Part shown: in pieces, positions 7,252 to 62,684 of the stretch
Layout: each line of letters opens with the position of its first letter
Numbering within the stretch: position 1 is the stretch's first letter
Virus record (IMG/VR): IMGVR_UViG_3300042891_002161
Strand: one strand, 5' to 3'
DNA length: 64,000 nucleotides
Source of the DNA: a virus
Taxonomy: Duplodnaviria > Heunggongvirae > Uroviricota > Caudoviricetes
Program-made: the position numbers and the translations under genes
The notes under the pieces: model-generated
What the model was told of the DNA's origin: nothing
Seen by the model: only the letters and a program-made list of their open reading frames with translations
Databases searched by the model: none

Positions 7252-7254
7252 TTT

Positions 7255-7331: not shown

Positions 7332-7484
7332 TAATACCCCACTTCATCAGATTACCGGACTGACTGCCATATGGGAGTGGGGGTCTCCTGTTTATCTCAG
7401 GACTCCGTGGAACCTCCCGGTAACGATCCGGGCTCCCTGGATTTTCAGTCCAGTGCTTTCACCTGATTAGCTTAGGTTCCAATT
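7332..7484 (-). ncRNA. unassigned GC-rich (about 50% GC) structured spacer between the two His tRNAs
   Basis: Local GC is far above the 28-30% background. Hairpins include CCCGG-atcgtta-CCGGG and TCCTG-agataaa-CAGGA, and a CTGATGA element is present. No tRNA cloverleaf could be drawn. Confidence 0.3.
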
Positions 7485-7618: not shown

Positions 7619-7835
7619 AATATTGTTCTTTATATAAATAGACTTGTTACATCTTATTTGAGAGCAATACACTTTCAGTACCGAACTGGTTGCTAAACCA
7701 CTTATTCGATTTACTAAAATGTTTATGTGTATTATTTGTTCTCATTGTAATTATATATTAAAAAGTTTTTGTTCCTTTTGTTGTTTTTGTTCTTATTTTA
7801 TACAAATATAGATAAAAGTTTTAAATCTACCTAAT

Positions 7836-8627: not shown

Positions 8628-9167
8628 ATGGATTTAAATAATTATTTAAGAAAAGACTATGCTACCCCATCCACATATTATGGATATTCAAGTGACTCAA
8701 ATGCTGCTTCTACAGATTTTAATTGGTCTATTAGAAAGGTAACAACATCTGGTAATGTTGAAACTGTTACTTGGACTAATGGTGATCCTGGAAAACCATT
8801 TGCTAAATGGAATGATAGAGTTAACTCATTCGCAACACCAACTGGTTCATTAGGTCTTACATGTAGTAAAGGAACTCAAATAGGAAATAATGTACCATTA
8901 AATATCACTTGGAACCAATTATCTGGTGTTAATAGATATCAAGTAGTTGTTTCAAAAAATAGTATAGTTTACTCAGATTTGGGATCTCAAATTTATTATA
9001 ATCCAAACACAAATCAAATTACTAAAGAGATAGTAAATGATGGTATTTATATTTATAATTTTGCTGAGTCAACTAATGGTCTTTCACCAAGTAATATTTA
9101 CTCTATTACAGTAACAGCTGTTAATGTTGCTGGATCTTCAGCATCAACTGTTACTATTACTACTTAA
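8628..9167 (+). CDS. Ig/FN3-like beta-sandwich protein (possible capsid decoration or adhesin)
   Basis: C-terminal YSITVTAVNVAGSSASTVTITT, Thr/Ser-rich strands and a WTNGDPG motif. A TAATATATAC motif lies about 21 nt upstream. Confidence 0.45.
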   Translation: MDLNNYLRKDYATPSTYYGYSSDSNAASTDFNWSIRKVTTSGNVETVTWTNGDPGKPFAKWNDRVNSFATPTGSLGLTCSKGTQIGNNVPLNITWNQLSGVNRYQVVVSKNSIVYSDLGSQIYYNPNTNQITKEIVNDGIYIYNFAESTNGLSPSNIYSITVTAVNVAGSSASTVTITT

Positions 9168-9564
9168 TAACTTCTTTGATAGATTCAGAAACCATTTTCT
9201 TATCAGCCGGAAGAGTTGCAAATTCTTTCATAATAGCACCGATTTGAGTGATGCCAGAATTTACAAGTTCTGTTACTTTAGCAGTAACTTCTTCTTTAGA
9301 CATTTGTGTTGGAAGGTAAACTTCAACAATAGCCAATTCAAGTTTAGATTTTTCGTCATTGCTCAAAGTGATAGTTTCTTTTAAAGACTTAACAGTTTTT
9401 GTTAAAATCTTCATTACCTCAGCATCTGAAAGATTATCAGAACCAATATTCTTTTCTACGGTTTGAATTTCTCCTTTAACAACAGATAGTATGCTTTTTG
9501 CTACCATGTTTTTAGACTTAAATGCTGTCATAAAGTCTGCGTTGATTTTTTCTTTCAGTGTCAT
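9160..9564 (-). CDS. GatB/YqeY domain protein
   Basis: Full-length match of the pattern to bacterial YqeY (DFMTAFKSKN...LSVVKGEIQTVEKN...LSDAEV..IL.K.VKSLKET...EL.IVE.YLP.QMS.EEV...V.ELV...G....IG.IMK). Confidence 0.7.
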   Translation of the reverse strand: MTLKEKINADFMTAFKSKNMVAKSILSVVKGEIQTVEKNIGSDNLSDAEVMKILTKTVKSLKETITLSNDEKSKLELAIVEVYLPTQMSKEEVTAKVTELVNSGITQIGAIMKEFATLPADKKMVSESIKEVIK

Positions 9565-9736: not shown

Positions 9737-10048
9737 TCTTCTTTGAGTTGGGTTTAATCATTAGTTATTTGAGACATCTATCACCAACACGACTTTGACA
9801 TCTACACCCTTACTATTTATCATATAGTTATATTACAAGGTAGTTCACTGTGTTTAACAAGGGTGTTAACTTATTTAACAGCTACTTACTACCATAATTT
9901 CGTTAAGACTCACACCGTTTTATCATATTATTAATGTGAAATCTTTCAATCTGTTGATTTCTCAACTTTTGCCTTAACGACTCTTTGTTTGTTATACAAA
10001 TGTATAAAGAAAGTTTTAATTTACCAAATAAATTTTAATATATAGAGT

Positions 10049-11713
10049 ATGTCAGACATGAAATATTTAATGTTATTTGAAGCTTTTGAATCCAATGCTT
10101 TATCAAAAATGATGACCTTTTTAGGTAACAAAGTAGATAATAATTCTAAAGGAAGATTCCAAGATAAATTAAAAAGATTAATTAGTAATTTTGATATTCC
10201 TATTGATAAAATAGTTGATAAAGATGTTAAGTATCTTAACAGAAATCAGGCTCTTAAATTAAAGAATGAAGAAAGATCTGATAGTGGTCTTTATTGTTTG
10301 AAATTTTGGTTTTCAATGGATGAGGGGTTTTTAGGATTTACAGGTACCGGAAATAGAACCATGGATTTTAATGAGTATCTTGAAGGTAATAGGAGAAGAA
10401 GAAGATCATCGGAAAAAAATGAACCTTTTAGTAATAAAGAATTAAATTATATTAAAAATGATTTAGATATTAAAACCGGAAAACTTACACCACTTAAAGA
10501 CTATGAGGATTTAAGACACGGTCAATTAGTTGTTGGTTTTTTTTCAGATGATGAAGATGATGAGTCAAGAATAGGATTGTCTAAAATTTGGAGAGATGGT
10601 AGTAGAATATTTGCTATACAAGATGTTGCTTCTGGTGGAACACCTGATTATGATGTAGATGGTGAATCATGGAGTGATTGGAGAAGTGGTAATCAATTTA
10701 GGTATTCTTGGTCATTGGACACTGTTGATTCGCCTGGTAATGATCATCACAAATTACATATTTATACACCATCAGATGAGCCTTTAAGAATAGAAGGTGT
10801 TAAAAAAGAAGAAGAAGAAGAAGAAGTTAAAGTATCAAGTCCATTTGACTTTAATCTACCATTAAATAGTAGTTATGAATTAAGAGAGTGGGGTGAAACA
10901 TCTTACTCAATAGATGAGTATAAAATGGTTGAAAATTCCGACTTTGCTATTGTTTTAATGATTGATGATATACTTAAATCTGTTAAAAAGAAAGTTACAC
11001 AACTTAGAACAGATAGATTAGAATTAAGACAAGGAGCTAGTAAACTAATGTCAGATGACCAAATTAAAACGGCTAATATTGAAAGATATTTAACTATTTT
11101 AATTAGTAAAATGGGTATTAAAAGTGATGTTAAAGAATTAAAAAATCTTCAAAAGTTAGTTATAAAGTCTATATGTAATGATTTTGCTTTTATTTCTATT
11201 TATAAAGGTAGACCAGGATTTGATGGCTTAAATAGTATAACCAGAGATATCTATAATATGATGAAAGTTGAAGATAAGAGTGATAAAGAATACTACTTAA
11301 AATCTATAATTAATAGATTCAAGTCATTAAATTCATCTTCAGAAGATTATATTAGAAGTTATATGCAGGGTCTTAAAATTATTAATGATAGTAATATAGA
11401 GCCAATTAAAGAACTATTCAAAATACTTATGAATATTGGTAAGAAAATAAAAGATTATTTACTATCTCAAAATATTCAAACGCTTGAAGATTTAAGAATG
11501 GTTATGGCTAAGTTAAAGTCTATTAATATTTTAGTAGGTGATGATGAATTTTCATTTAATGGATATACACGTTCTATTTTAAATGAGCTTCATTATGATA
11601 ATGATGTTAAATATTACATGAATGAATATAATGAAAGAAGAGAGCCACAAATTTTAGAAGATATTAAAAAGGCTAAACATATTGAAAGATACATTGACTC
11701 CTTATTGAGATAA
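10049..11713 (+). CDS. hypothetical protein with a CTS-like N-terminus, a poly-Arg run and a poly-Glu run
   Basis: 554 aa. N-terminus MSDMKYLMLFEAFESN. Contains RRRRR and EEEEEE runs. Confidence 0.6.
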   Translation: MSDMKYLMLFEAFESNALSKMMTFLGNKVDNNSKGRFQDKLKRLISNFDIPIDKIVDKDVKYLNRNQALKLKNEERSDSGLYCLKFWFSMDEGFLGFTGTGNRTMDFNEYLEGNRRRRRSSEKNEPFSNKELNYIKNDLDIKTGKLTPLKDYEDLRHGQLVVGFFSDDEDDESRIGLSKIWRDGSRIFAIQDVASGGTPDYDVDGESWSDWRSGNQFRYSWSLDTVDSPGNDHHKLHIYTPSDEPLRIEGVKKEEEEEEVKVSSPFDFNLPLNSSYELREWGETSYSIDEYKMVENSDFAIVLMIDDILKSVKKKVTQLRTDRLELRQGASKLMSDDQIKTANIERYLTILISKMGIKSDVKELKNLQKLVIKSICNDFAFISIYKGRPGFDGLNSITRDIYNMMKVEDKSDKEYYLKSIINRFKSLNSSSEDYIRSYMQGLKIINDSNIEPIKELFKILMNIGKKIKDYLLSQNIQTLEDLRMVMAKLKSINILVGDDEFSFNGYTRSILNELHYDNDVKYYMNEYNERREPQILEDIKKAKHIERYIDSLLR

Positions 11714-12065: not shown

Positions 12066-12500
12066 TTACATACTACGACGGATCTCACGATCCATATCTC
12101 TTTTTTTGATTGTTTCTCTTTTATCGTATAACTTTTTCCCTTTAACAACACCCAATTTAACTTTAACTCTGTTATGTGCTGTAAATATTTCTAACGGAAC
12201 CATAGTTGTTCCTTTATCTTGAAGTAATTTTTCAATTCTATCAATTTCTTTCCGATTAAGAAGTAATTTCTTATCTCTATTTTCATCATGTGGTTGAAAT
12301 GCGTGACTTTGTGAGTATCTAGCAACTTTCATGTTTTTAATCCAAATTTCACCTTTTTGTATGTAAGCAAAACAATCAGCAATAGTTACATTACCTTTTC
12401 TAATAGATTTAACCTCGCTACCCAATAGCATTACACCTGCGTCAAAGTCTTCCAACACAAAGTATTCATAATACGCTTTTCTATTAGTTGTTATTTTCAT
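12066..12500 (-). CDS. smpB: SsrA-binding protein SmpB
   Basis: Alignable along its length to bacterial SmpB (KAYYEYFVLEDFDAGVMLLGSEVKSIR.G...IADCFA...GE.W..N..V.....S.....D..R.KKLLLNRKEID..EK....KG.T.VPL.......VKV.L.V.KGKK.YDKRETIKKRD..REI.R). Confidence 0.85.
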   Translation of the reverse strand: MKITTNRKAYYEYFVLEDFDAGVMLLGSEVKSIRKGNVTIADCFAYIQKGEIWIKNMKVARYSQSHAFQPHDENRDKKLLLNRKEIDRIEKLLQDKGTTMVPLEIFTAHNRVKVKLGVVKGKKLYDKRETIKKRDMDREIRRSM

Positions 12501-13094: not shown

Positions 13095-13463
13095 TTAAAA
13101 GTCAGTGTCAGTGTTGTCAATAGAATCAACTGATTCAGATGGTGCTAATAAACCATCAATAATTTCAGTTAATTTTTTCTTAGTTACAGCCCCGTGTGTT
13201 GATTCAACAATTTGACCATCTTTATAAAAGAAGATTGTTGGAATATTTCTAACACCAAGTTCCATGACTTTATCTCTGTTTGCATCAGCATCACATTTAC
13301 CAACTTTAATTTGATCAACATAATCTGAAGAGATTTGATCCACAATAGGAGAAATCATTTTACAAGGACCACACCAAGGTGCCCAAATGTCAACAAGTAC
13401 TATTCCTTCTTTAACGAAATCATCATAGTTCTCACCGTTTAATTCTGTTATATATGCTACCAT
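13095..13463 (-). CDS. thioredoxin
   Basis: Active site WAPWCGPCK with a thioredoxin-fold context (VLVDIWA...C.M..P). Confidence 0.85.
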   Translation of the reverse strand: MVAYITELNGENYDDFVKEGIVLVDIWAPWCGPCKMISPIVDQISSDYVDQIKVGKCDADANRDKVMELGVRNIPTIFFYKDGQIVESTHGAVTKKKLTEIIDGLLAPSESVDSIDNTDTDF

Positions 13464-16327: not shown

Positions 16328-18157
16328 TTATTTTAACATATTTTCTAATTGTTCAACTGTAATCACTTCAACACCTAATTCAATAGCTTTCTTCTCTTTA
16401 GAAGAACCACTACCAATTGACTTCATTACAAGATGAGTTGTTGTTTTTGATACACCAGAACCAATCTTTCCACCACGAGATTCAATATCAGATTCTAAAT
16501 CTGGTCTACGAACTCCGGTAAAGACAAATGATTTACCCTCAAGGTCTGTGCCAACTTTAACAGCCTCAACTTTTTCAGTAATAGTGACAGGTAGATCTTT
16601 AATGAAGTCAAAAAAAATGTCATATGAGTCAATGTATGATTTAGCAGATACTTCAGCAAATCCTTCAATTGACATTACTTGGTCAACAGTTGGTTTAGTT
16701 TTGAAATTTTCTAAAAGAACTAATTTCTTAGAGCCTAATCCTTTGAAGATACCGGTAGCGTGTTGTAGTTTAGACAACTGAACATTACTAACAGACTTTT
16801 GAATAGATTTATAAACGATGTCAGCTTTTCTCTTACCAAAACGGTCAATCTTCTCTAAGTCAGAAGTTGTAAGAGTAAGAACATCTTTGATTGTTTTATA
16901 ACCAGCATCCCATAATTGAGTAATAACTCCTTCTGACACATTGTCTGCTTCTAAGATTTCAAAGAAAGCAACAATCTTTTTCAACTTCTGATCATCAGTT
17001 TCAGTTAAAGTGATTAACTCAATACCCGCATCATTCCAATCTACTTCAACACCTTCAATTGTAGGTTGAACAAATTCAACTGGAGTGATAACATCAGCAA
17101 TGATTGGAATAACCATTCCGGAACGTTTTACGACTACTTTGGCACCTACACCAAGTCCTAAGTCTTTTACAAATCTGGCGTTATTACCAGTCACGTTAGA
17201 CACTGTTACACCGTCAAGTTTAACTGGGTTAATATGTAGAATAGGTTTTAGTAAACCTTGTTTGGAAATATTCCAAGAGATTCCAATAACATCGGTTTCA
17301 GCAGATTGCTCAAAACTTGGATGTTTGAAGGCACGAGCCCATACTGGATTGTTTGAAGAAGTTTCACGACCTAACTTATCTTGAAGTTTTAGGTCATTTA
17401 ATTCAATAATCAAACCGTCAATTTCATATTCAGTAGAGAACTTATGAAATAAGTCAATAAGTAAATCTTCTGATAAATCAGATAATTGACAAATATGATA
17501 TTGTACTTTTGATACTTGCCCTTTGTTAAGTTCGTTAATAACTTCTTGTTTAGTAGAAAAGTTTCTTTTACAAACAGCACCGTATTTAATATACTGGCAA
17601 TCTTTTAGAGAATCACTTACAGTTTTAGAGTTTAACAAACCAGCAACTAAGTTACGAGGATTTGCGAAATCAGCTGAGAATTTATCAATGAATACTTGTT
17701 TAGGTATCATTACTTCACCGTAAGTAAAACTAAATGGATCTTCTTCTAAATTTAAGTGATTTTGAATTAAAGCGTAATGTTCATTTGATTTTTGACCAAA
17801 TTCTCCATCACCACGAGTCCAAGCTTCAGATGTAGTCTCGTTTACGCATAGTGACAAGCCATCAAATTTTGGTGTGATAATAACATATTCAGATTTTGAA
17901 ATACCTTTTAGACGAGACCAATCATCAACATCATTCATTGACTTAATTTTGTTCATTGAAGCCATTTCAATAGGAAGACGAGATTTGCGTGTTTCATCAG
18001 CAATTTCAACACCTACTTTAGTAAGTAATTCATCATCTGGTGATAATAAAGACAGTTCTTCAACTAGTTGGTCATACTTAGCATCAGATATGATTGGTTG
18101 TCCCAACCTATAGGCATCATTTGCCTTAATAATTTGCTCTTTTAATTGTTCAATCAT
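16328..18157 (-). CDS. ligA: NAD-dependent DNA ligase (LigA)
   Basis: N-terminal Ia domain YRLGQPIISDAKYDQL. Adenylation motif I ITPKFDGLSL (KxDG). OB fold. C-terminal BRCT domain (GKSFVFTGV...LGVEVIT). Confidence 0.85.
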   Translation of the reverse strand: MIEQLKEQIIKANDAYRLGQPIISDAKYDQLVEELSLLSPDDELLTKVGVEIADETRKSRLPIEMASMNKIKSMNDVDDWSRLKGISKSEYVIITPKFDGLSLCVNETTSEAWTRGDGEFGQKSNEHYALIQNHLNLEEDPFSFTYGEVMIPKQVFIDKFSADFANPRNLVAGLLNSKTVSDSLKDCQYIKYGAVCKRNFSTKQEVINELNKGQVSKVQYHICQLSDLSEDLLIDLFHKFSTEYEIDGLIIELNDLKLQDKLGRETSSNNPVWARAFKHPSFEQSAETDVIGISWNISKQGLLKPILHINPVKLDGVTVSNVTGNNARFVKDLGLGVGAKVVVKRSGMVIPIIADVITPVEFVQPTIEGVEVDWNDAGIELITLTETDDQKLKKIVAFFEILEADNVSEGVITQLWDAGYKTIKDVLTLTTSDLEKIDRFGKRKADIVYKSIQKSVSNVQLSKLQHATGIFKGLGSKKLVLLENFKTKPTVDQVMSIEGFAEVSAKSYIDSYDIFFDFIKDLPVTITEKVEAVKVGTDLEGKSFVFTGVRRPDLESDIESRGGKIGSGVSKTTTHLVMKSIGSGSSKEKKAIELGVEVITVEQLENMLK

Positions 18158-18179: not shown

Positions 18180-18497
18180 TTAATTTATCAATAACTTATT
18201 TAATTTTTCTTCTCTTGATGCCTTCTTTTTCCAAACTTCATATGAGTTTGGTTCTTTTGAATGTTTATTATTTACAGCTAATAGATTACGTTCCATTATA
18301 GTTAAATAGAAATTTGTTTCACCTCTTGATTTATCATAATATTTTTCTTTATATTTTAATATAAATATTAAATCGTCAAAAATGACTTTTTTTAAGATAT
18401 TAAAATATGATAAATCTTCAAAAGAAGATAAAATACCTTTTGATAAAAGATAATCAAAATGATTTCTTATACTGGTTATATTTGATTCAACTTTCAT
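18180..18497 (-). CDS. hypothetical protein
   Basis: 105-aa ORF. Confidence 0.45.
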   Translation of the reverse strand: MKVESNITSIRNHFDYLLSKGILSSFEDLSYFNILKKVIFDDLIFILKYKEKYYDKSRGETNFYLTIMERNLLAVNNKHSKEPNSYEVWKKKASREEKLNKLLIN

Positions 18498-18739
18498 AGT
18501 AATTCTTCAAGATTTTTATCACGATTGTATGTTTTTTCATCATAAACTTCAATTACATAGCCTTCAATCTTGAATTCAGAAGCCCAAGCATCATATCCTG
18601 TCTTATATTGAGGATTATCTTTTAAAACTTTTTGAATTGCCTCATCTTTTGATTCAGCGACAACATCAAAACTTGGTCTTGATCCACTGTACCAACCACC
18701 ATTATTAAATGTAACTGTGTAAATCTTCATCATAAACAA
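18494..18739 (-). CDS. hypothetical protein
   Basis: 81-aa ORF with a 4-nt overlap to its neighbour. Confidence 0.45.
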   Translation of the reverse strand: MFMMKIYTVTFNNGGWYSGSRPSFDVVAESKDEAIQKVLKDNPQYKTGYDAWASEFKIEGYVIEVYDEKTYNRDKNLEELL

Positions 18740-27299: not shown

Positions 27300-28397
27300 A
27301 TGAATATGAATAATAACACAATTGGAAATGAGGAAATGATGGATATCTTTGATGAAACCATATTTACTCGCAAAGGTACTCGCAACAAAAGCACTAAAGA
27401 GTACCAAGAAATGATTAAACTTTATAAACTTGACGAAATCGCTATTCCAGAAGAAGGTCAAGTAGTATCCGCTAAATACGTTGGCATGGCAGCAGGTCAA
27501 TTTGTATTCAGTGTAGTTGGATACAAAGATGACGTAAGAGTTGACGATAAAGTTGGTGAATCAAAATACTTCAAGAACTTAAACTTGAATGATATGATTG
27601 ACGTTTTAATCACTGAAGTTAATCAAGATGCTTTTATGATTAAAGGAAGTGTATCTTCTCTTTATGAATCAAGAGCTCATGCTAAACTTAAAGCACTTGT
27701 TGAAGGTGAATCAGTTATGGTTACAGTTAAGAGTCTTAACCCAGCTGGTTACGATGTTGAATTAAATCACGGTGGTGTTACACTTCCAGGATTTATGCCA
27801 AACACCTTAGCCGGAATCAACAAGCTACACGACCCAATGTCTATCGTAGGACAGACATTCAGTGTAATGATTGAGTCTTATGCTCAAAACGAAGGAACTT
27901 ATATCGTTTCAAGACGTAAGTATCTTCAAACTCTTATCCCTGATGCGGTTAAAGAACTTGAATATAATAAAATATATCAAGGTCACGTTACAGGAACTAC
28001 ACCATTTGGTGTGTTCGTGGAGTTCAACGAATGCTTAACTGGAATGATTCACAAGGCAAACGTTAATCCTGAATGGGCAGAGAAGTTAACTTCAATCACA
28101 CCAGGATTTGAAATTGACTTCTACATCAAAGAAGTGATTAAAGATAAAATTATCTTGACTCAAATTCTTCGTGAGACTCTTTGGGACAACATCAAAAACG
28201 GTCAAATCATTGAAGGTACCGTTAAAGACACCAAAGCATTTGGTACTTTAGTAAACCTTGATGATGAGACAGTGGGTCTTATCCACACTTCAGAAATGGA
28301 GAAGCTTGGTAAGAAATTCACTTCGGGTCAACCGATTAAAGTGAAAGTTTTAAGTGTAGATCGCATGTCTCGTAAAATCTTCTTGACCTTAGGTTAA
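27300..28397 (+). CDS. ribosomal protein S1-like protein (about 4 S1/OB domains)
   Basis: Repeated S1 signatures: GQVVSAKYV..AAGQFVFSV; GHVTGTTPFGVFVEF.ECLTGMIHKANV; GQIIEGTVKDTKAFGTLVNLDDETVGLIHTSEM...GQPIKVKVLSVDRMSRKIFLTLG. Confidence 0.7.
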   Translation: MNMNNNTIGNEEMMDIFDETIFTRKGTRNKSTKEYQEMIKLYKLDEIAIPEEGQVVSAKYVGMAAGQFVFSVVGYKDDVRVDDKVGESKYFKNLNLNDMIDVLITEVNQDAFMIKGSVSSLYESRAHAKLKALVEGESVMVTVKSLNPAGYDVELNHGGVTLPGFMPNTLAGINKLHDPMSIVGQTFSVMIESYAQNEGTYIVSRRKYLQTLIPDAVKELEYNKIYQGHVTGTTPFGVFVEFNECLTGMIHKANVNPEWAEKLTSITPGFEIDFYIKEVIKDKIILTQILRETLWDNIKNGQIIEGTVKDTKAFGTLVNLDDETVGLIHTSEMEKLGKKFTSGQPIKVKVLSVDRMSRKIFLTLG

Positions 28398-28415: not shown

Positions 28416-28450
28416 AAGAAAAGCCTCAGACTTATCTGAGGCTTTTTTTA
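28416..28450. terminator. rho-independent terminator (bidirectional)
   Basis: AAAAGCCTCAGActtaTCTGAGGCTTTTTTT. Confidence 0.7.
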
Positions 28451-28927
28451 TTTATATAGTTGTAATATTAGATTAAATCTATCAGGTACATCACCTTCAT
28501 CATATCCACCATATTCTAAATGAACTTTTGATTCTTTATTAGTATGAGTATTACTACCAATGTATTGATAATCTTCTTCTTCTTTTATCTTATTAAAACA
28601 AGATTGAACTTCTAATACCAATTCATTTAATTCCTCAGTGTATTTAACTAAATCTATTATTCTTGAAGGTCTATATTTTTTAGAAGCCATATTAGCCAAG
28701 TTAAGAAATATTCTATATCTTTTGACTTTTTGTTTATAACTATTTCCACCCAAACCTTGTCCTTGATAGTGTGTTATTTCACTTTCATATAATTCAGAAG
28801 TGGCGCCCATATCTATAAACTCAGCAAATACAGCATCAAAGAATTTTTTATCATCTTCTGTAAAGTCTTTAGCTAATCTATCTTCATCTGGAACCCAATT
28901 TTCATTAAATCTATTTAAGTATCTCAT
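28448..28927 (-). CDS. hypothetical acidic protein, CTS-like N-terminus (MRYLNRFNEN)
   Basis: 159 aa. Member of the N-terminal leader family. Confidence 0.5.
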   Translation of the reverse strand: MRYLNRFNENWVPDEDRLAKDFTEDDKKFFDAVFAEFIDMGATSELYESEITHYQGQGLGGNSYKQKVKRYRIFLNLANMASKKYRPSRIIDLVKYTEELNELVLEVQSCFNKIKEEEDYQYIGSNTHTNKESKVHLEYGGYDEGDVPDRFNLILQLYK

Positions 28928-29406
28928 GATTTTACTTCAATTACATATTGACCAGGGTAAGCTCTGAAATCCGACTTAACCATTACCGTAATAACAGTTA
29001 ATCTGAATTCATTATCACCTGGCACTAATTGACAAACAACATTTAAGTTATTTGTTTTATTTTTAATTAAAAATCTATTTGGCTCACCTTCTTTGACACC
29101 TTTAGTTGGGTAATTATCTTCTAATTGATAGATATTGAATTTATCTTGCATGAGAGCAATAGTCAACTCTTCAATTGCTAATTCAATTGTGTCAATGATA
29201 TCCTCATCTTTAATTTGATTTTCTAAAGCACCGTGTCTGAATTGTCTATCACCAGCATGATTTACTTTCTCAACATCAATTCTGATTTCAACAGGTTCTT
29301 TTAAGTAAGCAATTTCCTTAGGAGGTCTACTCGCAGCAATTCTTCTATCAATATAAGGATTGTTAAAAGCTTCAAATGTTTTTAGATTTTTCATTAATAT
29401 ACCCAA
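28924..29406 (-). CDS. hypothetical protein, CTS-like N-terminus (MKNLKTFEAFNN)
   Basis: 160 aa with a 4-nt overlap to the downstream gene. Confidence 0.5.
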   Translation of the reverse strand: MGILMKNLKTFEAFNNPYIDRRIAASRPPKEIAYLKEPVEIRIDVEKVNHAGDRQFRHGALENQIKDEDIIDTIELAIEELTIALMQDKFNIYQLEDNYPTKGVKEGEPNRFLIKNKTNNLNVVCQLVPGDNEFRLTVITVMVKSDFRAYPGQYVIEVKS

Positions 29407-29432
29407 TTTTTGTATTGGTATATATTAATTTA

Positions 29433-36743: not shown

Positions 36744-36778
36744 TTAATATATACTTTACAAAAAATTTCTAATATTTT

Positions 36779-36913
36779 ATGCCTAATAAATTACAATTTT
36801 ACAACGATAGTGATGTTGGTTATGATCATGAGTGGTACTCAGATGAGTTAATTGAAGAAGTTAAAATAGAAGAACAAATAGAAGAAGATGAAAAAAAACC
36901 TAAAGAAGTATAA
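36779..36913 (+). CDS. possible small acidic ORF (44 aa) overlapping the start of the next gene
   Basis: ATG is 22 nt downstream of a TTAATATATAC motif. The product is MPNKLQFYNDSDVGYDHEWYSDELIEEVKIEEQIEEDEKKPKEV. Not in the ORF track (below its length cutoff). Confidence 0.25.
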   Translation: MPNKLQFYNDSDVGYDHEWYSDELIEEVKIEEQIEEDEKKPKEV

Positions 36914-37871
36914 TGACTTTATAAATGAGTCTTTAGTTGCTAAGCCAAAATTAACAAAACAATCACTTGATTTTATTATAAGTAGAGTTATTTTAAAAGT
37001 ACCAGGTACTGGTAAAGAAACTATACAAGAGTTAAGAGATGATTTTGAAGAGTCAGTAATTGCTATGTCTGATTTTTATCCTGGTTGGTTTTCTGATATG
37101 TGTAAAAGGAAAGATGCTAACCCTGAAGCTGATTATCAAGAAATGCAAAATTTGCTTAATAAAAAAGGTTGGGACTTTGAATCAATTAAAAACTTATTCA
37201 GCGAAGAAGCTAATAAATTAGTTGATAAAGATTTTGATGGTTGGTTTAATAGTTATGGACAAATAGGAAGTCAAAATGGTCACTGTGATGTTTATCTTTA
37301 TTTTACTGCTAAAAAATTAGGATTAAATGCTAATGATATTATTTCATTAGGTGGAGATGGATGGGCCTCTTATGCTGAAGGTGATGAGATGTACATCAGA
37401 TATAAATATGGTTATCATCAAACTAAATATGGTCAATTAATGTTAGATCAAATAGGTTATACAGTTGAACAATTTAGAGAAGAAGCTTTAGTTTATTTAC
37501 AACAAGATATTAAAGATAACTGGAGTGAGATGATATCATCAAGTGTTATGCGTAATGGTGTAATTAATAAAGTTCCAGTTAGAAGATCCGATTTAGGTGA
37601 TAATCTGATAAAAAATTTAACTTCTTTTTTAAGATCATCAATTCAAATTGAAGATTTTACTTTAGTTGAAGATGATAGAATGATTATATACACAAATGAA
37701 ATGGCTGATACTATTAATAAAGCTTTTCCAGATACAACAACATCAGAAGAAATGTCGGCTGGTATAGTTAAGTATTTAGAATGGGCCGGAAATGATACTG
37801 AAGAAGATGAAAGAATTGAAGTTATTGATGGTGATGTTGTCATTTGGGGTAAATTCAAAGTTGATTTCTAA
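36888..37871 (+). CDS. hypothetical protein with a CTS-like leader (MKKNLKKYNDFINES)
   Basis: 327 aa. Best match to the leader consensus. Confidence 0.6.
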   Translation: MKKNLKKYNDFINESLVAKPKLTKQSLDFIISRVILKVPGTGKETIQELRDDFEESVIAMSDFYPGWFSDMCKRKDANPEADYQEMQNLLNKKGWDFESIKNLFSEEANKLVDKDFDGWFNSYGQIGSQNGHCDVYLYFTAKKLGLNANDIISLGGDGWASYAEGDEMYIRYKYGYHQTKYGQLMLDQIGYTVEQFREEALVYLQQDIKDNWSEMISSSVMRNGVINKVPVRRSDLGDNLIKNLTSFLRSSIQIEDFTLVEDDRMIIYTNEMADTINKAFPDTTTSEEMSAGIVKYLEWAGNDTEEDERIEVIDGDVVIWGKFKVDF

Positions 37872-42736: not shown

Positions 42737-43471
42737 TTAAATATTTTTTAAATCGTTTTTAACTTTTTCCATACCAGTTGATGCCAATTCTTGGTAATGA
42801 GTAAATAAGTCATTTCTGTATTCTGGTACATAGAAATCAAGGTCTGATAAATCCACATAGTAAATCTTAGCAGTTTCTCTAGTCAAAAATGGAATTGTAT
42901 TAGCAGGTGAAACTTTCATTGAAGTTCCAACAACAATACAAACATCACATTCTTTAGCCGCTTCTGTAGCCATATCAACAAAATCTGGATCTAGATTTTC
43001 ACCAAACCAAACAATATGCGGTCTTAATTGAGAACCAGTTGTTGGACATTTATCACCAATATTAATTGGATTATATCCTATATCAATAATATTATCTAGC
43101 GGTGATGTTTTGTGGTCATACATACAACCTCTCGCCTTTGTTAATTCACCGTGTAAGTGAATAATATTAGTTGAGCCTGCTCTTTCGTGTAAATCATCAA
43201 CATTCTGAGTTACAACAGTAACATCAAAATCTTTTTCTAAATCAGCAATTATTTTATGCGCCAAATTTGGCTCAACATCTTTCATTTGAGCACGACGCAT
43301 ATTGTAGAAATTAAGAACTTTTTCTCTATCTCTACGCCACCCACTAGGTGTGGCAACATCTTCTACTTTGTGATTATACCAAAGTCCGTCATCTCCAGTT
43401 CTAAAAGTAGCAACGCCACTTTCAGCTGAAACTCCTGCTCCAGTAAAAATCAATACTTTTTTCTTATTCAT
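42737..43471 (-). CDS. Sir2-family NAD-dependent deacylase (sirtuin)
   Basis: GAGVSAESGVATFRTGDDGLWY (NAD-binding GAGIS..SGIPTFRG..GLW), zinc-ribbon cysteines, VGTSMKV and a catalytic His context (HLHGEL). Confidence 0.85.
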   Translation of the reverse strand: MNKKKVLIFTGAGVSAESGVATFRTGDDGLWYNHKVEDVATPSGWRRDREKVLNFYNMRRAQMKDVEPNLAHKIIADLEKDFDVTVVTQNVDDLHERAGSTNIIHLHGELTKARGCMYDHKTSPLDNIIDIGYNPINIGDKCPTTGSQLRPHIVWFGENLDPDFVDMATEAAKECDVCIVVGTSMKVSPANTIPFLTRETAKIYYVDLSDLDFYVPEYRNDLFTHYQELASTGMEKVKNDLKNI

Positions 43472-53105: not shown

Positions 53106-53143
53106 AATTCTAAGAATTAAACTTTCTTTTTTAATAAAAGATA
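53106..53143. terminator. bidirectional terminator between convergent genes
   Basis: GAAAGTTTAATTCtaaGAATTAAACTTTCTTTTTT. Confidence 0.6.
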
Positions 53144-53830
53144 ACCAACCATTCCGGCGACATCTTTAGAGCAATTACCCATAGATTCAATTTTAGTTTC
53201 ATCGCCGGTTAACTTAATACCTGATAGTTTTTGTTTACCTAAGATTCTTTTCTCACCATTACACTTTTTACAAGGTGTTAAACCTACTTTACCTTTACCA
53301 TTACAGAAGTTACAAGAATCACCTTTATAGTCTTTACCTGAACCTTCACAGAAGTCACAACCATCATCAGCATCAAATGTTTTTAGAATATTACCATCAT
53401 TGTCTTTAATAACAATTTTGGCGGAAAGATCTTTACCTGTACCATCACAAGTTTTACATTTAACCCATCTTTCATATTCTAAAGTACCATCAAATTTATC
53501 ACCTATTGTAAGATAAATATCTAAAACTTCATTCTTCTTAAATTTTTCAAAATTTGACTTTTCTTTCTGATAATCAAAATCTATATTAACATCAAATAGT
53601 TCAAAGTATTCATTATAGTTATTACCAAATTTACTTTTAACATCATAGTCTTTTCTTTTTTCACCACAAAGAACATCATATGCCTCTGTCATTTCACCAA
53701 AAGTAACAGGGTTGCCACCTTTATCGGGGTGGTGAGTAAATGATAGTTTATAGTAAGCTTTCTTTATTACCTTTTCATCAGAGTTATTATCAACTCCAAG
53801 AATTGAGTAATAGTTTTTATTCAAATTCAT
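53117..53830 (-). CDS. DnaJ-type J-domain protein with CxxCxGxG zinc-finger repeats (short; no C-terminal substrate domains)
   Basis: J domain YYSILGV...AYYKLSFTHHPDKGG (HPD). Four CxxCxGxG repeats (CKTCDGTGKD, CDFCEGSGKD, CNFCNGKGK, CKKCNGEKR). Confidence 0.8.
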   Translation of the reverse strand: MNLNKNYYSILGVDNNSDEKVIKKAYYKLSFTHHPDKGGNPVTFGEMTEAYDVLCGEKRKDYDVKSKFGNNYNEYFELFDVNIDFDYQKEKSNFEKFKKNEVLDIYLTIGDKFDGTLEYERWVKCKTCDGTGKDLSAKIVIKDNDGNILKTFDADDGCDFCEGSGKDYKGDSCNFCNGKGKVGLTPCKKCNGEKRILGKQKLSGIKLTGDETKIESMGNCSKDVAGMVGYLLLKKKV

Positions 53831-54499: not shown

Positions 54500-54565
54500 A
54501 TTAAAATCTTTTTTTATAGTTTATATATTTAATATATATACTTATATCTATAAAATATAACATAG

Positions 54566-56095
54566 TTGAAAATGATTAAAAAATATTCAGACTTCTTAAA
54601 CGAAAACTTAGAATTCATCATAGAATCTAATGTTGTTTATTCTGATAACTTCAGAAAAGCAATGACCAAAATTGAACACCCAATGGCTAAAGCTATTTTA
54701 GGTGTTGAAAACAATGATATTACGGTTCAGGCTAACTACCTTGATATTGAGTTTTCTAAAAATGATACAATTACTTTTACTCCTGATAGAAAAGCTCAAG
54801 AGATTTTAGGTGATACTAAAGAAGTAGTTAGATTCACTGGTTCTGGTGGTGGTTGGTTAAAACACAAAGACTCAAATGCTAAATTATTTACTCAATTAGG
54901 TTATACATTTGAAGAAGGTTCTGAGCCTTATAAACCAAATTCAAGAGATTTGGGTGAAATAGTTGCTAGAGTTACTTCTGAATCAAGTGGTAAAGTCTAC
55001 GCTTGGGTTAAATTCAAAGATAATTCAGGTAATGATGTTGGTAAAGGTGTTTATAATGTTGAGAAGTTAAGATCTGTTGATGAAAAACTTAAAAAAGTTT
55101 GGTCATCTAATAGACAAGAGGTTAAAGTAGGTAGAGCAATGAGAGCGCTTTTGAAAGCGGCTGGTGCTGAATTTACTGATAGAGATTTTGAACAATTTGT
55201 AAATTTATATAAAGCTACTATTGATAAGATGAATGATAAGTTTTCTTATATTGAAGTTGTTAGAGGTGGAGATATTGCTCACTGGTATCATGCTGAAAAT
55301 TACTTTCAAAGAAGTGGTACATTAGGTTCATCTTGTATGGCTGGTGCTCCAGATAGTTGGTTAGAAGTTTATACCGCTAATCCAGAAGTTGGTTTAGTTA
55401 TTTACAAATCAATGGATGATACTGAAAAGATTATTGGTAGAGCATTACTTTGGAAATTAAAAGATGGTAAAGAATTCTTAGATAGAATTTATACAGTAAA
55501 TGATTCTGATGTTCAATTATTTAGAGATTATGCTAAAGAAAATGGTTGGTACTATAAAGAACATAATAATAGCTCAGATAGTAGTAATGCTATAGCTCCA
55601 GATGGAAGTAGAGTTAGTTTAGACTTAACTGTTAATTTAACTGATGCTAGTATGGATAATTTTCCTTACTTAGATACACTTAAATATTTCAACCCAAGAA
55701 GAAAAACAATTTCAAATGAAGATACTGGTGGATGTTATTTCTTAGAAGATACAGGTGGTGATTATGTTAGACCTTGTGATACTTGTGGTGGATCGGGTAG
55801 AATGGAATGTGGAGATTGTGATGGAAACGGTGACCATCAATGTTCAGATTGTGATGGTGATGGAGAAGTTGATTGTGGTGAGTGTGATGGCTCTGGTAAA
55901 GAAGAATGTTCAAACTGTAGTGGATCAGGAGAAGTAGACGGTGAATCTTGTGGAGATTGTGAGGGAACAGGACAAGTTAATTGTTCTTCTTGTGATGATA
56001 AAGGTAAAATAGAATGTACATCTTGTGACGGAGATGGTAGAGTAGAATGTGGTGAATGTGGTGGTAGAGGACAAGTAGATTGTTACGACTGTTAA
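54566..56095 (+). CDS. CTS-leader protein with nine C-terminal CxxCxGxG (DnaJ-type) zinc-finger repeats
   Basis: N-terminus MKMIKKYSDFLNEN. The C-terminal 100 aa are CDTCGGSG, CGDCDGNG, CSDCDGDG, CGECDGSG, CSNCSGSG, CGDCEGTG, CSSCDDKG, CTSCDGDG and CGECGGRG. Confidence 0.7.
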   Translation: MKMIKKYSDFLNENLEFIIESNVVYSDNFRKAMTKIEHPMAKAILGVENNDITVQANYLDIEFSKNDTITFTPDRKAQEILGDTKEVVRFTGSGGGWLKHKDSNAKLFTQLGYTFEEGSEPYKPNSRDLGEIVARVTSESSGKVYAWVKFKDNSGNDVGKGVYNVEKLRSVDEKLKKVWSSNRQEVKVGRAMRALLKAAGAEFTDRDFEQFVNLYKATIDKMNDKFSYIEVVRGGDIAHWYHAENYFQRSGTLGSSCMAGAPDSWLEVYTANPEVGLVIYKSMDDTEKIIGRALLWKLKDGKEFLDRIYTVNDSDVQLFRDYAKENGWYYKEHNNSSDSSNAIAPDGSRVSLDLTVNLTDASMDNFPYLDTLKYFNPRRKTISNEDTGGCYFLEDTGGDYVRPCDTCGGSGRMECGDCDGNGDHQCSDCDGDGEVDCGECDGSGKEECSNCSGSGEVDGESCGDCEGTGQVNCSSCDDKGKIECTSCDGDGRVECGECGGRGQVDCYDC

Positions 56096-59565: not shown

Positions 59566-59901
59566 TTAATATAGTTTACCTGTTTCTAAGTAGTAAGTAT
59601 TATGTGTAGTTATCAACTCTATAGTTTCATGTGTTGTTTTACACTTATCCATAAAAGATTTAACATCTTCATCATTTAAATCAAACCACTCACCATTTAT
59701 CTTTTTACTTTTGAATGTTCTGTGTAATTGTGATTCTATTTTTGTTCCCCACTTTGACTTAAAAGAGTCTATAACATACATCTCGGAACCATTACCGGTC
59801 TTCAATTCTTTTATTCTTTTAGAGACATCTCTTCTTGTATAACCTATTTTATACAATCTTCTTCCTTCAAATTCAGCACATATTAAGTAGATATTAAACA
59901 T
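59566..59901 (-). CDS. GIY-YIG / T5orf172-like domain protein
   Basis: NIY-x10-YKIGYT spacing with downstream Arg/Glu (RRDVSKRIKELKTG) fits the GIY-x(9-11)-YIG pattern. Confidence 0.45.
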   Translation of the reverse strand: MFNIYLICAEFEGRRLYKIGYTRRDVSKRIKELKTGNGSEMYVIDSFKSKWGTKIESQLHRTFKSKKINGEWFDLNDEDVKSFMDKCKTTHETIELITTHNTYYLETGKLY

Positions 59902-60099
59902 AGAGTATATATTACTCTAACATGTTTTCATTACCAGATTTGTGGAAAGTTTGTTGGACCGTTTGGTGTAGAAGTTATAATAATATGAGGAACATCTATG
60001 TCAAATATTTTACCTATTTTTATTCTTCTTGAATATCTTTTAGAAAAAGTTGGTTTAACAATAGATATATCTACTTCTTTGACGAAAACTCCAGGACTC

Positions 60100-60585
60100 T
60101 TAAATACTACCATTTTTATTTTTCTTTTTACTTCTTCTTGTTTTCTTGTGAGATTTAGATGATTCATCACCATATTTATAATCTAAATAGAATAAAGTGC
60201 CTGATGGTCCAGACATTGGAGTTACTCCTTTTTTCATCAACTCTTTATATTCTTCATCATCTTCTAACTTCTTTTCAGTAAATTCACCACCTTCAATAAT
60301 AGCTTCAATTTTACCATCACGATTTTCAGATTGTACTTTCTTTTTAACCTCATCAATTTCTTCTTTTGAAGCAAATATTAAATCATTTGATATTGTTCTA
60401 GTGGCTACTTTCATTGCGATTGGTAATAAACTTGGAAAATCTTCTGATTTAGTTTCTTCTAATATGTGATTTGATTGATTTTCGGCTAACTGTGATAAAT
60501 TATCTAATTGAGATCCAGTCATACCCATAGGGCCTAAAATATTAGCCCACTTTTTCATTATATCTTCTTTATTTGGTTGTTTCAT
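60100..60585 (-). CDS. hypothetical protein
   Basis: 161 aa with a Lys-rich C-terminus. The overlapping 80-aa ORF at 59931-60173 is probably spurious. Confidence 0.45.
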   Translation of the reverse strand: MKQPNKEDIMKKWANILGPMGMTGSQLDNLSQLAENQSNHILEETKSEDFPSLLPIAMKVATRTISNDLIFASKEEIDEVKKKVQSENRDGKIEAIIEGGEFTEKKLEDDEEYKELMKKGVTPMSGPSGTLFYLDYKYGDESSKSHKKTRRSKKKNKNGSI

Positions 60586-60631: not shown

Positions 60632-60946
60632 TTAGTAGTTAAAGTTTAAGAACTCATACTCTTTGACTATAAGTTGTTTGACCTTTTCAAAGTTTTCTTC
60701 AGATAAAGAATAATACTTTTTCTGAAACCAACTAATCATATGATTAATAATAACATCCTCTGCCTCACCGTTTCCAGTTCTTGAATAATATTCGGGATCT
60801 TCTTCATCTGGTTTCCATTGATTAATTTCATCATTTAACATATCTTGTATTTCAGATTGGTCTGGAAATCTTCCTTTAATTTTAGCAATAGCAAACTCAG
60901 GATCTTGTTGTTCTTGATTTTCGTTATATTTTTTTAAGTATTTCAT
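60632..60946 (-). CDS. small acidic protein, CTS-like leader (MKYLKKYNENQ)
   Basis: 104 aa. Confidence 0.5.
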   Translation of the reverse strand: MKYLKKYNENQEQQDPEFAIAKIKGRFPDQSEIQDMLNDEINQWKPDEEDPEYYSRTGNGEAEDVIINHMISWFQKKYYSLSEENFEKVKQLIVKEYEFLNFNY

Positions 60947-60961
60947 AATATATATATTAAT

Positions 60962-61705
60962 TTATATGCCAAACATATCTTTCATTTGAGAAAGAAAGTT
61001 GTTAACAAAGTCTTTATCTTTTTCAGAACCACCTTCAAGTATATTTTTCACCCATTCTTTGTTCTCAATATATTGATAAGCTTGTAGTTTATCCGAGTAA
61101 TCAAAATCATCCATTTTCTTCCCAGTATATGATTCAATATCCTTTTCAAATTCTTCTTCAGAAGTCCACATGTCATCTGTTTCTTTTGACAATCTATCGT
61201 CTAGACCAGCAATAGCATCATCAATATCACTTATATCACTATCAGAAATACTAAGATTAGATTCATCAGAAGTATAAATCCAAGTCTCATCCATCTTATT
61301 TAAGATATGGTTAGCTTCTTTTCCTAATCTCATAATATCTTCTTCATCTCTTTCCTCATTATCTAATAAACTATTAAAACAAGATATCAAATCATCTAAA
61401 TGACTAAAAATAGATTCTTCATAAGAAGAAAGTAAATCTTTACCATAAACTTCTTTTTCAAATAAATTAATTACAGATAAGTATTCTTCAGTAATTTTAT
61501 ATTCACCTTTAACAGCACTATCAATTAAATCATTCAATGAAGCTTTAAATCTTTCATAAGATGATAGTTTATTATCATCATAACACTTTTTCTCATGAAG
61601 TTGAACTATTTTAATAATAGCTTGTTTCATTTTACCAATGTTTGCTAAAAAGTCAAAATCAAAATCATTTGATTCTAAAAATAGTTTATAGTTTTTAATT
61701 TTCAT
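60962..61705 (-). CDS. acidic protein, CTS-like leader (MKIKNYKLFLESN)
   Basis: 247 aa and highly acidic (DDxxD-rich). Confidence 0.55.
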   Translation of the reverse strand: MKIKNYKLFLESNDFDFDFLANIGKMKQAIIKIVQLHEKKCYDDNKLSSYERFKASLNDLIDSAVKGEYKITEEYLSVINLFEKEVYGKDLLSSYEESIFSHLDDLISCFNSLLDNEERDEEDIMRLGKEANHILNKMDETWIYTSDESNLSISDSDISDIDDAIAGLDDRLSKETDDMWTSEEEFEKDIESYTGKKMDDFDYSDKLQAYQYIENKEWVKNILEGGSEKDKDFVNNFLSQMKDMFGI

Positions 61706-61707
61706 GA

Positions 61708-62667
61708 TTATTTTAATTTTATATGTATGTAAACATAATATGATGTTGGTTTAAGACTGATTAAAACTTTACCACCCCATCTCTTAGTCATTACCCAAGT
61801 AGTGAAGTTATTTTTAATATTCATAAACTCACCTTCATCAAATTTACCGTTGTCCCATTTACCTAAACCTTTATATCCAAATGAAATAATCTTATCTTGA
61901 ATTTTCACAACATCTTTTGATTCGTGATACCCTGGATTAAATCCTTTCATATCTAATTTAATCTTACCTAATGTCATTAAATCCACTAAACTTAAATTAA
62001 CTAATTCTTTCTTTAATGAATGAGCTGATTTAGATTCAATTTGACAGATCCATTTAATAACAGATTGATTCAACTTAAATTGACCAATTGGTGTTGGTAC
62101 ATCATAATGTAAACCATATTCAAAGTTACCATCACATTTGATACCAAAGTATAAATCAACTTCATTCTTTTGATAATCAACATGGTCTAAGTATCTACTT
62201 AAAGATTTGAATCTTGAAAATACTTGTTTAACATCTTCTGATTGTAAATTAGGATAGTAATAGTATAATAAAAAGTCATCTGGAGATTTAGACCAATTAG
62301 GTCCTAATTCTTTTTGACCTAAACTGGTTAAAGCTTTTAAGAAAGAAGTAAATATACCTTTACCAGCAACTGTAATTTCTGATTCAGTTAATTCTTCTAA
62401 ATCAGTTGAAACTAAGAACTCAGGTTCTTTTTCTTCAATACCATTTTGTAAGTAATTATCAATTTGATATTTAATTTCAGATTGAATTCTCTCATCTAAG
62501 ATATTAATAGCATTTGATAAGTCAATAGAAGCGTCAGAATCTTTCGTATAACGAGCTACTATGTTTCTAACATATTCATCAGATATTAAAGATTCAACCC
62601 ACTCACCAAGTGAGTTAAATCCATTAATTTGACTTTCTTTTATGAAATCTAAGTATCTTTTAATCAT
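61708..62667 (-). CDS. hypothetical protein, CTS-like leader (MIKRYLDFIKES)
   Basis: 319 aa. A TTTAATATATAAAC motif lies upstream at 62672-62690 (rc). Confidence 0.55.
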   Translation of the reverse strand: MIKRYLDFIKESQINGFNSLGEWVESLISDEYVRNIVARYTKDSDASIDLSNAINILDERIQSEIKYQIDNYLQNGIEEKEPEFLVSTDLEELTESEITVAGKGIFTSFLKALTSLGQKELGPNWSKSPDDFLLYYYYPNLQSEDVKQVFSRFKSLSRYLDHVDYQKNEVDLYFGIKCDGNFEYGLHYDVPTPIGQFKLNQSVIKWICQIESKSAHSLKKELVNLSLVDLMTLGKIKLDMKGFNPGYHESKDVVKIQDKIISFGYKGLGKWDNGKFDEGEFMNIKNNFTTWVMTKRWGGKVLISLKPTSYYVYIHIKLK

Positions 62668-62684
62668 AGTTTATATATTAAAAA

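Follow-up and report, generated by a model that had tools for sequence, protein, structure and literature searches.

A T4-like N-terminal leader on unrelated proteins of uncultured huge phages is a candidate capsid-targeting propeptide

A shared N-terminal leader was found on proteins encoded by a 64,000-nt stretch of Caudoviricetes DNA (record IMGVR_UViG_3300042891_002161; the window, below). We give a probability of roughly 0.55 to the reading that this leader is a detachable capsid-targeting propeptide of the T4 type, ~10-14 residues long and greatly expanded in number. The leader is N-terminal, is under constraint as an amino-acid sequence, is shared by over 100 unrelated proteins, and resembles both the T4 capsid-targeting sequence (CTS) and a repeat of the phage scaffold. 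Docking, cleavage, packaging and delivery are what we infer from these properties. While the T4-type propeptide is known, its expansion to the scale of a proteome in uncultured huge phages would be new, and literature searches turned up no previous account of the leader in megaphages. The window derives from an AT-rich huge phage related to uncultured LR745206 (634,780 bp). Within the phage collection, its only relatives at the DNA level are the uncultured huge phages LR745206 and LR756502 (642 kb), which have been positioned beside Mar_Mega_1 in a study of marine megaphages (PMC9723777).

Nine of the ~73 window proteins open with the leader M-K-x-[LI]-K-K-[YF]-x-[DE]-F (Table 1). An earlier reading of the DNA made without database searches (the sequence-only reading) had quoted eight such N-termini and placed three of the genes in tandem at 60632-62667. 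All eight were found, the trio is indeed in tandem on the minus strand, and a ninth leader protein was added (5989-6171(-)). Counts were taken over the 73 larger open reading frames (ORFs), which comprise 19,166 residues. The strict motif Y.[DE]F[IL].E has three matches, every one at residues 5-8, compared with 0.06 matches in total and 0.002 N-terminal matches in a shuffled control. With a looser pattern, 7 of 15 matches are N-terminal (0.17 expected). The T4 core YQEFIAEA was used as an independent query, and the N-termini of 36888, 61708 and 54572 (genes are named here by their first coordinate) scored 23, 22 and 18, respectively. None of 2,260 internal 19-mers of the window reached a score of 18. 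Two N-termini without the leader also scored high, those of SmpB and of the 13095-13463 protein, which we take from its appearance to be thioredoxin-like.

The T4 CTS is MKTYQEFIAE (10.1101/2021.01.19.427310). Suppressor analysis has shown that targeting depends mainly on residues 4 and 7 of the CTS and processing on residues 8 and 10 (PMC9026906). In the 319-aa family, represented by the first gene of the trio, Y5, F8, I9 and E11 have spacing identical to these four T4 residues (Y, F, I, E). This family has 660 homologues, all about 318 aa, in which K3, Y5, F8, I9 and E11 are invariant and the three residues past the Glu (S12-I14, 0.40) are hypervariable with indels. Residues 1-13 are disordered in the AlphaFold2 model, with a predicted local distance difference test (pLDDT) score of about 31; the fold search with this protein gave no informative match. 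The leader starts at residues 1-4 and lies outside the predicted fold. The sequence-only reading had claimed closeness to the T4 CTS, which is removed at (L/I)-x-E, for the consensus of the whole set. The likeness is specific for 36888, 54572 and 61708. [LI]-x-E is present within these three leaders and the canonical site is missing in 6 of 9; that of 10049 counts too only if its start is 10058.

LR745206 was put together from 14 segments, a position-specific scoring matrix (PSSM) of the leader was built, and N-termini above 10 bits were counted. The leader was found on 120 of 906 predicted proteins (13%), compared with 2 of 2,759 internal-Met pseudo-N-termini (0.07%). The consensus is M-K-[YH]-[LI]-K-[KST]-[YF]-x-E-F, followed by acidic or Ser residues. 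The remaining 87% of genes, including those for capsid and portal, have no leader. A score of at least 20 against the T4 core was reached by 10.8% of the leader N-termini, 0.1% of other N-termini and 0.05% of internal windows, a BLOSUM enrichment of about 200-fold over internal windows. Leader proteins of LR745206 have a median length of 168 aa and are acidic on average (Asp plus Glu 18.6% vs Lys plus Arg 13.6%). When all 129 leader proteins (120 from LR745206 and 9 from the window) were compared by all-against-all BLAST minus their first 16 residues, they fell into 114 clusters. The tag is therefore found on unrelated proteins, and the paralogous family named in the title of the sequence-only reading was rejected. 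Pfam domains of the tagged enzymes begin ~30 or more residues in, where checked, which makes the leader an add-on. Four window leader proteins have an LR745206 orthologue, in every case leader-tagged, and five have no homologue there.

The constraint on the leader acts on amino acids, not on RNA. In the conserved columns, synonymous codon usage is the same as genome-wide (Lys AAA 62-75% vs 74%; Phe TTT 71-81% vs 71%), Leu codons are spread over five synonyms, and codons in the [LI] and [YF] columns differ in their first and second bases. PTm1, an equally AT-rich jumbo phage of Tenacibaculum, a Bacteroidota host, is essentially leader-free (3 weak matches among 310 proteins). Codon usage and PTm1, together with the internal-Met controls, thus exclude a generic AT-rich start context, a concern that the sequence-only reading had itself raised. 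Purifying selection on the leader is strong within families. Among the 115 homologues of the 327-aa protein (53-98% identity), the major residue has a frequency of 0.88 across leader residues 1-14, compared with 0.68 for residues 15-30 and 0.75 for the body. A Sec, Tat or lipoprotein signal was rejected, since no hydrophobic core or lipobox was seen in leaders read by eye, with no signal-peptide predictor used.

The leaders fall into three classes. Class A (Y-x-x-F-[ILV]-x-E), in which the aromatic pair Y/F-x-x-F is invariant, includes window genes 36888, 54572 and 61708. Class B reads Y-x-[LIM]-F-E and class C [YF]-x-E; both retain the [LI]...[YF] pair at positions 4 and 7 and are otherwise divergent. 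[LI]-x-E occurs at residues 5-18 in 48% of LR745206 leaders, compared with a background of 17-18%. A sister lineage, with a capsid protein closest to that of LR756500, was sampled via 32 IMG/VR loci. Here, 26 of 29 distinct leaders are class A and 27 of 29 contain [ILV]-x-E. These include MAKLKTYSEFVNEA and MGKLKTYNEFVNEA, with 7 of 10 positions identical to T4 KTYQEFIAEA (e.g. KTYSEFVNEA). The dominance of class A and the T4-like leaders in the sister lineage suggest that class A is ancestral and that classes B and C were derived in the LR745206-like lineage. In the sister lineage, leader genes also occur inside the head module: in the portal-protease gap (locus L076), in the protease-capsid gap (L083) and right after the capsid gene (L097).

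A T4 gp21-family prohead protease, which the sequence-only reading had proposed to search for, was found in relatives together with a T4 portal and Gp23, while the 64-kb window contains neither the protease nor a head module. LR745206 encodes a T4-type portal (Pfam Portal_T4 E=2.7e-57) and a Gp23 capsid protein (E=1.8e-26). Directly 5' of the capsid gene is the gene for a 707-aa protein, whose residues 1-200 align with T4 gp21 via GEFDHP, VSSRAAG and D motifs (His, Ser, Asp). Neither the LR745206 protease, searched against the PDB with single-sequence phmmer, nor T4 gp21, searched in the same way against the proteomes, gave a match, but a five-sequence profile of the protease domain succeeded; its sole PDB match is 5JBL, the T4 prohead protease (E=7.6e-8). 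The rest of the 707-aa protein is an acidic scaffold with 9-14 tandem 13-residue repeats, Y-S-E-Y-[ILV]-A-E-N-L-D-K-N-I. This protease-scaffold fusion with repeats was also found in LR756504, LR756501 and nearly all of 80 IMG/VR loci; head machinery was seen in LR745206, LR756500, LR756501, LR756504 and IMG/VR loci. PTm1 has the same fusion with another, TKELSEGIEKWI-like repeat, and an 83-aa LR745206 protein (460435) has two scaffold-type repeats.

Every scaffold repeat holds an [ILV]-A-E site. The LR745206-type protease starts with MKPVLIIE followed by N, and the N-terminal region of the capsid protein has SINE followed by N. The residue at P1' is small or polar both in the scaffold and in the leaders, where it is Ser in 38% of cases (7.5% background). 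The start of the LR745206-type protease is comparable with the LLIE-9 site of T4 gp21. That T4 site has been given as 'LIE-9' (PMC9026906). Based on the scaffold, protease, capsid and P1' residues, the specificity of the protease is plausibly T4-like, [ILV]-x-E. The scaffold-repeat consensus YSEYIAENL was compared with the leaders using BLOSUM, and 10% of leader N-termini scored at least 20, compared with 0.3-0.6% of controls. A common variant of the 319-aa leader, Y-L-E-F-I-K-E-N-L, is close to the repeat Y-S-E-Y-I-A-E-N-L. This similarity suggests that the tag is a mimic of a single scaffold repeat; such mimicry would account for docking as well as cleavage.

These observations can be arranged into a proposed pathway. 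Tagged proteins would be made late in infection alongside the head proteins. The amphipathic tag, with its hydrophobic [LI] and [YF]/F residues and Lys and Glu flanks, would mimic one scaffold repeat and dock on the scaffolding core, placing the protein inside the prohead. Class-A leaders (Y-x-[DE]-F-[ILV]-x-E, then S/N/A/G) would be cut after the Glu by the gp21-family prohead protease, which would free the cargo in the head. The cargo would then stay with the DNA and might reach the next host, or it would be degraded along with the scaffold. Among the explanations considered, capsid targeting is the best supported by sequence and context, above all for class-A leaders.

Several observations count against capsid targeting. 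Most window leaders (6 of 9) and about half of the LR745206 leaders are without the canonical [LI]-x-E, and leaders of classes B and C may have another purpose or escape cleavage. A strict PSSM of the scaffold repeat retrieves no leaders and only the softer BLOSUM comparison does, so the link between leader and scaffold is suggestive, not proven. The 13% of genes that are tagged is far above any known packaged proteome. The tagged proteins are acidic on average, unlike the basic T4 internal proteins, and several (RNA ligase 1, nucleotidyltransferase, GH108, NFACT-R) are normally expected in the cytoplasm. The nearest cultured relative found, PTm1, has the protease-scaffold architecture but no leader. 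Finally, the head module lies outside the window, and we infer its presence in this lineage from LR745206, LR756501, LR756504 and 48 IMG/VR loci.

Many of the same points would fit a sorting or recognition function of another kind, in which the N-terminal tag of late proteins is read by a chaperone, a protease (as a degron), a membrane or assembly site, or a compartment. We regard this main rival as unlikely, but it has to be taken seriously. The tagged 13% of genes includes enzymes that are usually cytosolic, about half of the leaders have no canonical cleavage site, and the tagged proteins are acidic. However, such a function leaves unexplained the match to the T4 CTS at four functionally mapped positions, the likeness to the scaffold repeat and the leader genes in the head module. 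Another possible explanation is that the tag does target the prohead core, while the tagged proteins are assembly-only accessory or scaffold proteins that are degraded and expelled instead of delivered. The T4 core proteins gp22, gp67 and gp68 are acidic and helical, and the tagged set contains proteins that resemble them; the 247-aa protein, for instance, has an isoelectric point (pI) of 4.3 and four [LI]-x-E sites. The likeness between leader and scaffold repeat also fits. We consider this explanation improbable. Many of the tagged proteins are enzymes or folded domains in which internal sites are few, and it is implausible that one genome would encode more than 100 different scaffold accessories.

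Two further explanations have very little probability in our view. One holds that the leader is a by-product of AT-rich composition or an mRNA initiation signal (a downstream box, or a leaderless start after the upstream motif TTAATATATA described below) and that the peptide has no role. In its favour, the preferred residues K, Y, L/I, F and N all have A/U-rich codons, many leader genes begin 4-5 nt past TTAATATATA, and no Shine-Dalgarno-like sequence is seen upstream; this RNA-level or compositional artefact was nonetheless rejected based on the internal-Met controls, leader-free PTm1 and codon usage, to which can be added the 87% of genes without a leader, the varying L/I and Y/F columns and the presence of leaders at both promoter spacings. 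Just as hard to credit is common descent without functional selection, either as a paralogous family or as a mobile promoter-plus-first-exon cassette spread by recombination, since the bodies are unrelated, leader DNA is conserved no more than the codons demand and purifying selection is stronger on the leader than on the body, even though promoter motif and leader often co-occur and the locus is plastic.

Only ~11 of the 120 leader proteins of LR745206 have Pfam domains. The tagged enzymes include a 2H (Acb1-like) phosphoesterase fused to a DEDD exonuclease, a T4-type RNA ligase 1, a polyA/CCA-type nucleotidyltransferase and a DHH phosphoesterase; NUDIX, GH108 (lysozyme-like), methyltransferase and NFACT-R domains are also tagged. 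The first four of these look like a set for RNA repair and possibly for the degradation of nucleotide signals. The functions of the tagged enzymes would suit pre-packaged takeover or counter-defence proteins and would suit cytoplasmic late enzymes equally well. A more far-reaching and tentative proposal, which we think possible but doubtful, is that a T4-derived, scaffold-mimicking tag loads a large part of the late proteome, the products of ~10% of all genes, into the head, that the virion delivers a pre-made takeover and counter-defence arsenal, and that the packaged proteome can be read from metagenomic sequence. The cargo would then comprise RNA-repair enzymes, the 2H (Acb1-like) phosphoesterase plus exonuclease, and other nuclease or phosphoesterase enzymes.

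Should the tag work in the way proposed for capsid targeting, the T4 principle would be extended from a few internal proteins to over 100 proteins in each genome of the largest phages known, which are uncultured. A simple sequence rule would predict which genes of metagenomic huge phages have products that end inside the particle. Scaffold-repeat mimicry would become a basis for targeting that can be tested in T4 itself. Many proteins without an assigned function, including acidic ones and those of the RNA-repair or phosphoesterase type, would become candidate injected effectors, and the leaders would provide natural CTS variants for protein-delivery engineering based on T4.

Like the T4 CTS, the leader is an N-terminal tag of ~10 residues on otherwise unrelated proteins encoded by variable cargo genes, with, in class A, the same Y-x-x-F-[IL]-x-E core spacing and a small residue after the Glu. 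Relatives in this clade encode a gp21-family protease and a Gp23/gp20 head, as T4 does. It differs from T4 in having ~100-fold more tagged genes (9 in the window, 120 in LR745206), an additional [LI]-K-K element before the aromatic residue, two derived classes without I-x-E, and a scaffold fused to the protease. The cargo also differs, being mostly acidic and including enzymes, and is not small and highly basic like T4 IPI/II/III. Strong acidity had been claimed for many of the window proteins. This was true in part: 4 of 9 have a pI below 4.7 and the rest do not, with a range of 4.3-5.7 apart from the 60-aa protein at 8.7. T4 gp22, gp67 and gp68 are acidic and helical and are cut repeatedly at [LI]-x-E; the scaffold here has its 9-14 repeats, one of which the leader resembles. 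Unlike the T4 scaffold, the regular 13-residue repeats and the protease-scaffold fusion belong to this clade (and to PTm1, with the other repeat).

phiKZ and SPN3US are also large phages with many head-internal proteins, a prohead protease related to T4 gp21 and propeptides thought to target, but their propeptides are often over 100 residues and have no common short leader (PMC5694885, PMC7411985). They are also cut at a differently composed x-x-E motif (e.g. ALE, SLE). Encapsulin cargo-loading peptides are short terminal peptides that load cargo into an HK97-fold shell; their sequences are unrelated and the likeness is one of analogy only. The same is true of the P1 Dar anti-restriction proteins, a head-packaged defence-related cargo that differs in sequences, positions and partners (PMC9024508, PMC12810830).

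The motif TTAATATATA occurs 13 times in the window compared with 1.8 expected (about 7-fold), and seven copies are upstream of leader genes. Other copies are upstream of the collagen-like fibre gene and of genes for proteins of 1055, 1073 and 1598 aa, and one precedes the tRNA cluster. In LR745206, 45% of leader genes and 16% of other genes have T[TA]ATATATA in the 60 nt before them (p=2e-11). The motif is also 5' of the portal gene, with one-base variants 5' of the protease and capsid genes. TTAATATATA/T[TA]ATATATA may thus be a late promoter, judging from this distribution. Its spacing to the ATG is bimodal, either 4-5 nt or about 20-30 nt, and leaders occur at both spacings. If the motif is a -10-like late promoter, the short spacing would result in leaderless or near-leaderless mRNAs.

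Table 1. Coordinates of leader genes and other features (window positions unless LR745206 is named)
Feature	Position	Strand	Details
319-aa protein	61708-62667	-	Trio gene 1; class-A leader MIKRYLDFIKE, codons 62635-62667; N-terminus MIKRYLDFIKES
247-aa protein	60962-61705	-	Trio gene 2; leader MKIKNYKLFLES; N-terminus MKIKNYKLFLESN
104-aa acidic protein	60632-60946	-	Trio gene 3; class-C leader MKYLKKYNEN without [LI]-x-E; N-terminus MKYLKKYNENQ
327-aa acidic protein	36888-37871	+	Class-A leader MKKNLKKYNDFINE, then S
507-aa acidic protein	54572-56095	+	Class-A leader MIKKYSDFLNE, then N; C-terminal zinc-finger array
156-aa protein	28924-29394	-	Leader MKNLKTFEAFNN; PSSM 15.8 bits; TTAATATATA at 29419-29428
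159-aa protein	28448-28927	-	Leader MRYLNRFNEN; PSSM 8.8 bits
551/554-aa protein	10049-11713	+	Leader (MSD)MKYLMLFEAFES; TTAATATATA at 10035-10044
60-aa protein	5989-6171	-	Leader MKHLQKFNEK; PSSM 9.2 bits; TTAATATATA at 6193-6202
TTAATATATA copy	62672-62681	-	4 nt 5' of the ATG of the 319-aa gene
TTAATATATA copies	60951-60960(-), 54529-54538(+), 36744-36753(+), 29419-29428(-), 10035-10044(+), 6193-6202(-)		5' of other leader genes
TTAATATATA copy	7752-7761	-	Upstream of the tRNA cluster
TAnnTTTG sites			Upstream of 16328-18157(-), 42737-43471(-), 18494-18733(-), 400-798(-), 12066-12500(-)
161-aa Gp23-N-like protein	60100-60585	-	No leader; Pfam Gp23 E=0.0048; PHROG 138 (major head protein) E=3.7e-5
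Small ORF and MUG113/T5orf172 gene	59566-60173	-	Small ORF 59931-60173; MUG113/T5orf172 (GIY-YIG-like) gene 59566-59901
44-aa ORF	36779-36913	+	Contains the 36888 start in another frame
tRNA cluster	4515-7480	-	Nine tRNA genes
SmpB, YqeY-like, S1-domain protein, DnaJ	12066-12500(-), 9160-9564(-), 27300-28397(+), 53117-53830(-)		Translation and chaperone genes
707-aa protease-scaffold gene	LR745206 198546-200669		L008 18546-20669
Four tagged enzyme genes, given jointly	LR745206 448257-449573(-), 470485-471747(+), 516201-517373(+), 105634-107625(-)		2H phosphoesterase-exonuclease, RNA ligase 1, nucleotidyltransferase, DHH phosphoesterase

Pfam and PHROGs searches of the nine window leader proteins gave nothing above thresholds. 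The exact trio proteins were found again on metagenomic contigs, with close homologues on contigs of up to 557 kb. The trio locus is plastic: flanked by conserved neighbours, the genes for the 247-aa and Gp23-N-like proteins each occur in some related contigs and are missing from others, and all orthologues at this locus retain their leaders. The 247-aa gene is present in the window and in contigs L106-L108 and missing at this position in L109 and LR745206. Its protein, which has 205 homologues restricted to the marine lineage, is very acidic; the AlphaFold2 model is all helical, with a pLDDT of 54.9, a confidence too low for a fold search. The 104-aa protein has orthologues in LR745206 (96 aa, MKYLRKYNES, 44% identity) and in L107-L109.

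The start of the 507-aa protein had been quoted as 54566. This N-terminus is real, but 54566 is a TTG; the ATG at 54572 is likelier, gives MIKKYSDFLNEN and agrees with the orthologues. The zinc-finger repeats reported by the sequence-only reading are located here, as the last ~100 residues form a long run of DnaJ-type CxxCxGxG units. LR745206 has an orthologue (LR_90898, 50% identity) and three paralogues, all four leader-tagged and with a conserved LESxVV[YF]S motif after the leader, and the orthologues in L107-L109 retain the leader. The N-terminus quoted for 10049 is also present, but the ORF reads MSD-MKYLMLFEAFESN, with three extra residues ahead, and the start is either 10049 or 10058. 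Its orthologue LR_333761 (38% identity) starts with MRYISLYEAFESS.

The start of 36888 sits inside a 44-aa ORF in another frame, and it is this ORF that begins 25 nt 3' of the TTAATATATA copy at 36744-36753. The arrangement may reflect an upstream ORF or coupled translation. The 28448 gene overlaps the end of the 28924 gene and is therefore probably in the same operon; neither the 159-aa nor the 156-aa protein has a homologue in LR745206.

Directly 3' of the trio is the gene for the Gp23-N-like protein, which matches the LR745206 capsid protein (phmmer E=2.7e-6). It copies the propeptide and N-arm part of a T4-type capsid protein, with an inserted acidic stretch and a poly-Lys/Arg tail; neither the remainder of a Gp23 gene nor an intron-split capsid gene was found downstream in the window. 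The protein (~160 aa) is conserved in LR745206 (L003 21407-21880) and L109 (11516-11983) and missing in L107 and L108. It might be taken into heads by way of the scaffold-binding N-terminus of the capsid protein. The gene is followed by an overlapping small ORF, which has VFKSPGVFVKEVD and no Pfam match, and then by the MUG113/T5orf172 gene. All three genes are present in the window, LR745206 and L109, only T5orf172 in L108, and none in L107. The gene set at 59566-60585 recalls a homing-endonuclease cassette with gene fragments as passengers.

The window is coding dense, with a GC content of 27-38%, and contigs that bear homologues of its proteins reach 385-557 kb. Other products of the window include a collagen-like tail-fibre protein, several proteins of 1,000-1,600 aa without a family match, a gp46/SbcC-like nuclease subunit, an NAD-dependent DNA ligase, SIR2, DnaJ, SmpB, YqeY and a Dam-type methylase. 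No Shine-Dalgarno-like sequence was seen upstream of window genes when the upstream regions were read. TAnnTTTG (often TATCTTTG), which we take to be a Bacteroidota-type promoter element, is found just 5' of several replication-type or non-structural genes, including those for ligase, SIR2 and SmpB. The presence of TAnnTTTG and the lack of a visible Shine-Dalgarno-like sequence point to a Bacteroidota-type host and to a second, host-like promoter class separate from TTAATATATA. Besides the phage-borne translation and chaperone genes of the window (Table 1), ribosomal protein S21 is encoded on related contigs (L107-L109) and GrpE on L106. The clustered tRNA genes of the window are four tandem tRNA-Lys (three UUU and one CUU), two tRNA-Phe and one each of tRNA-His, tRNA-Arg and tRNA-Ser.

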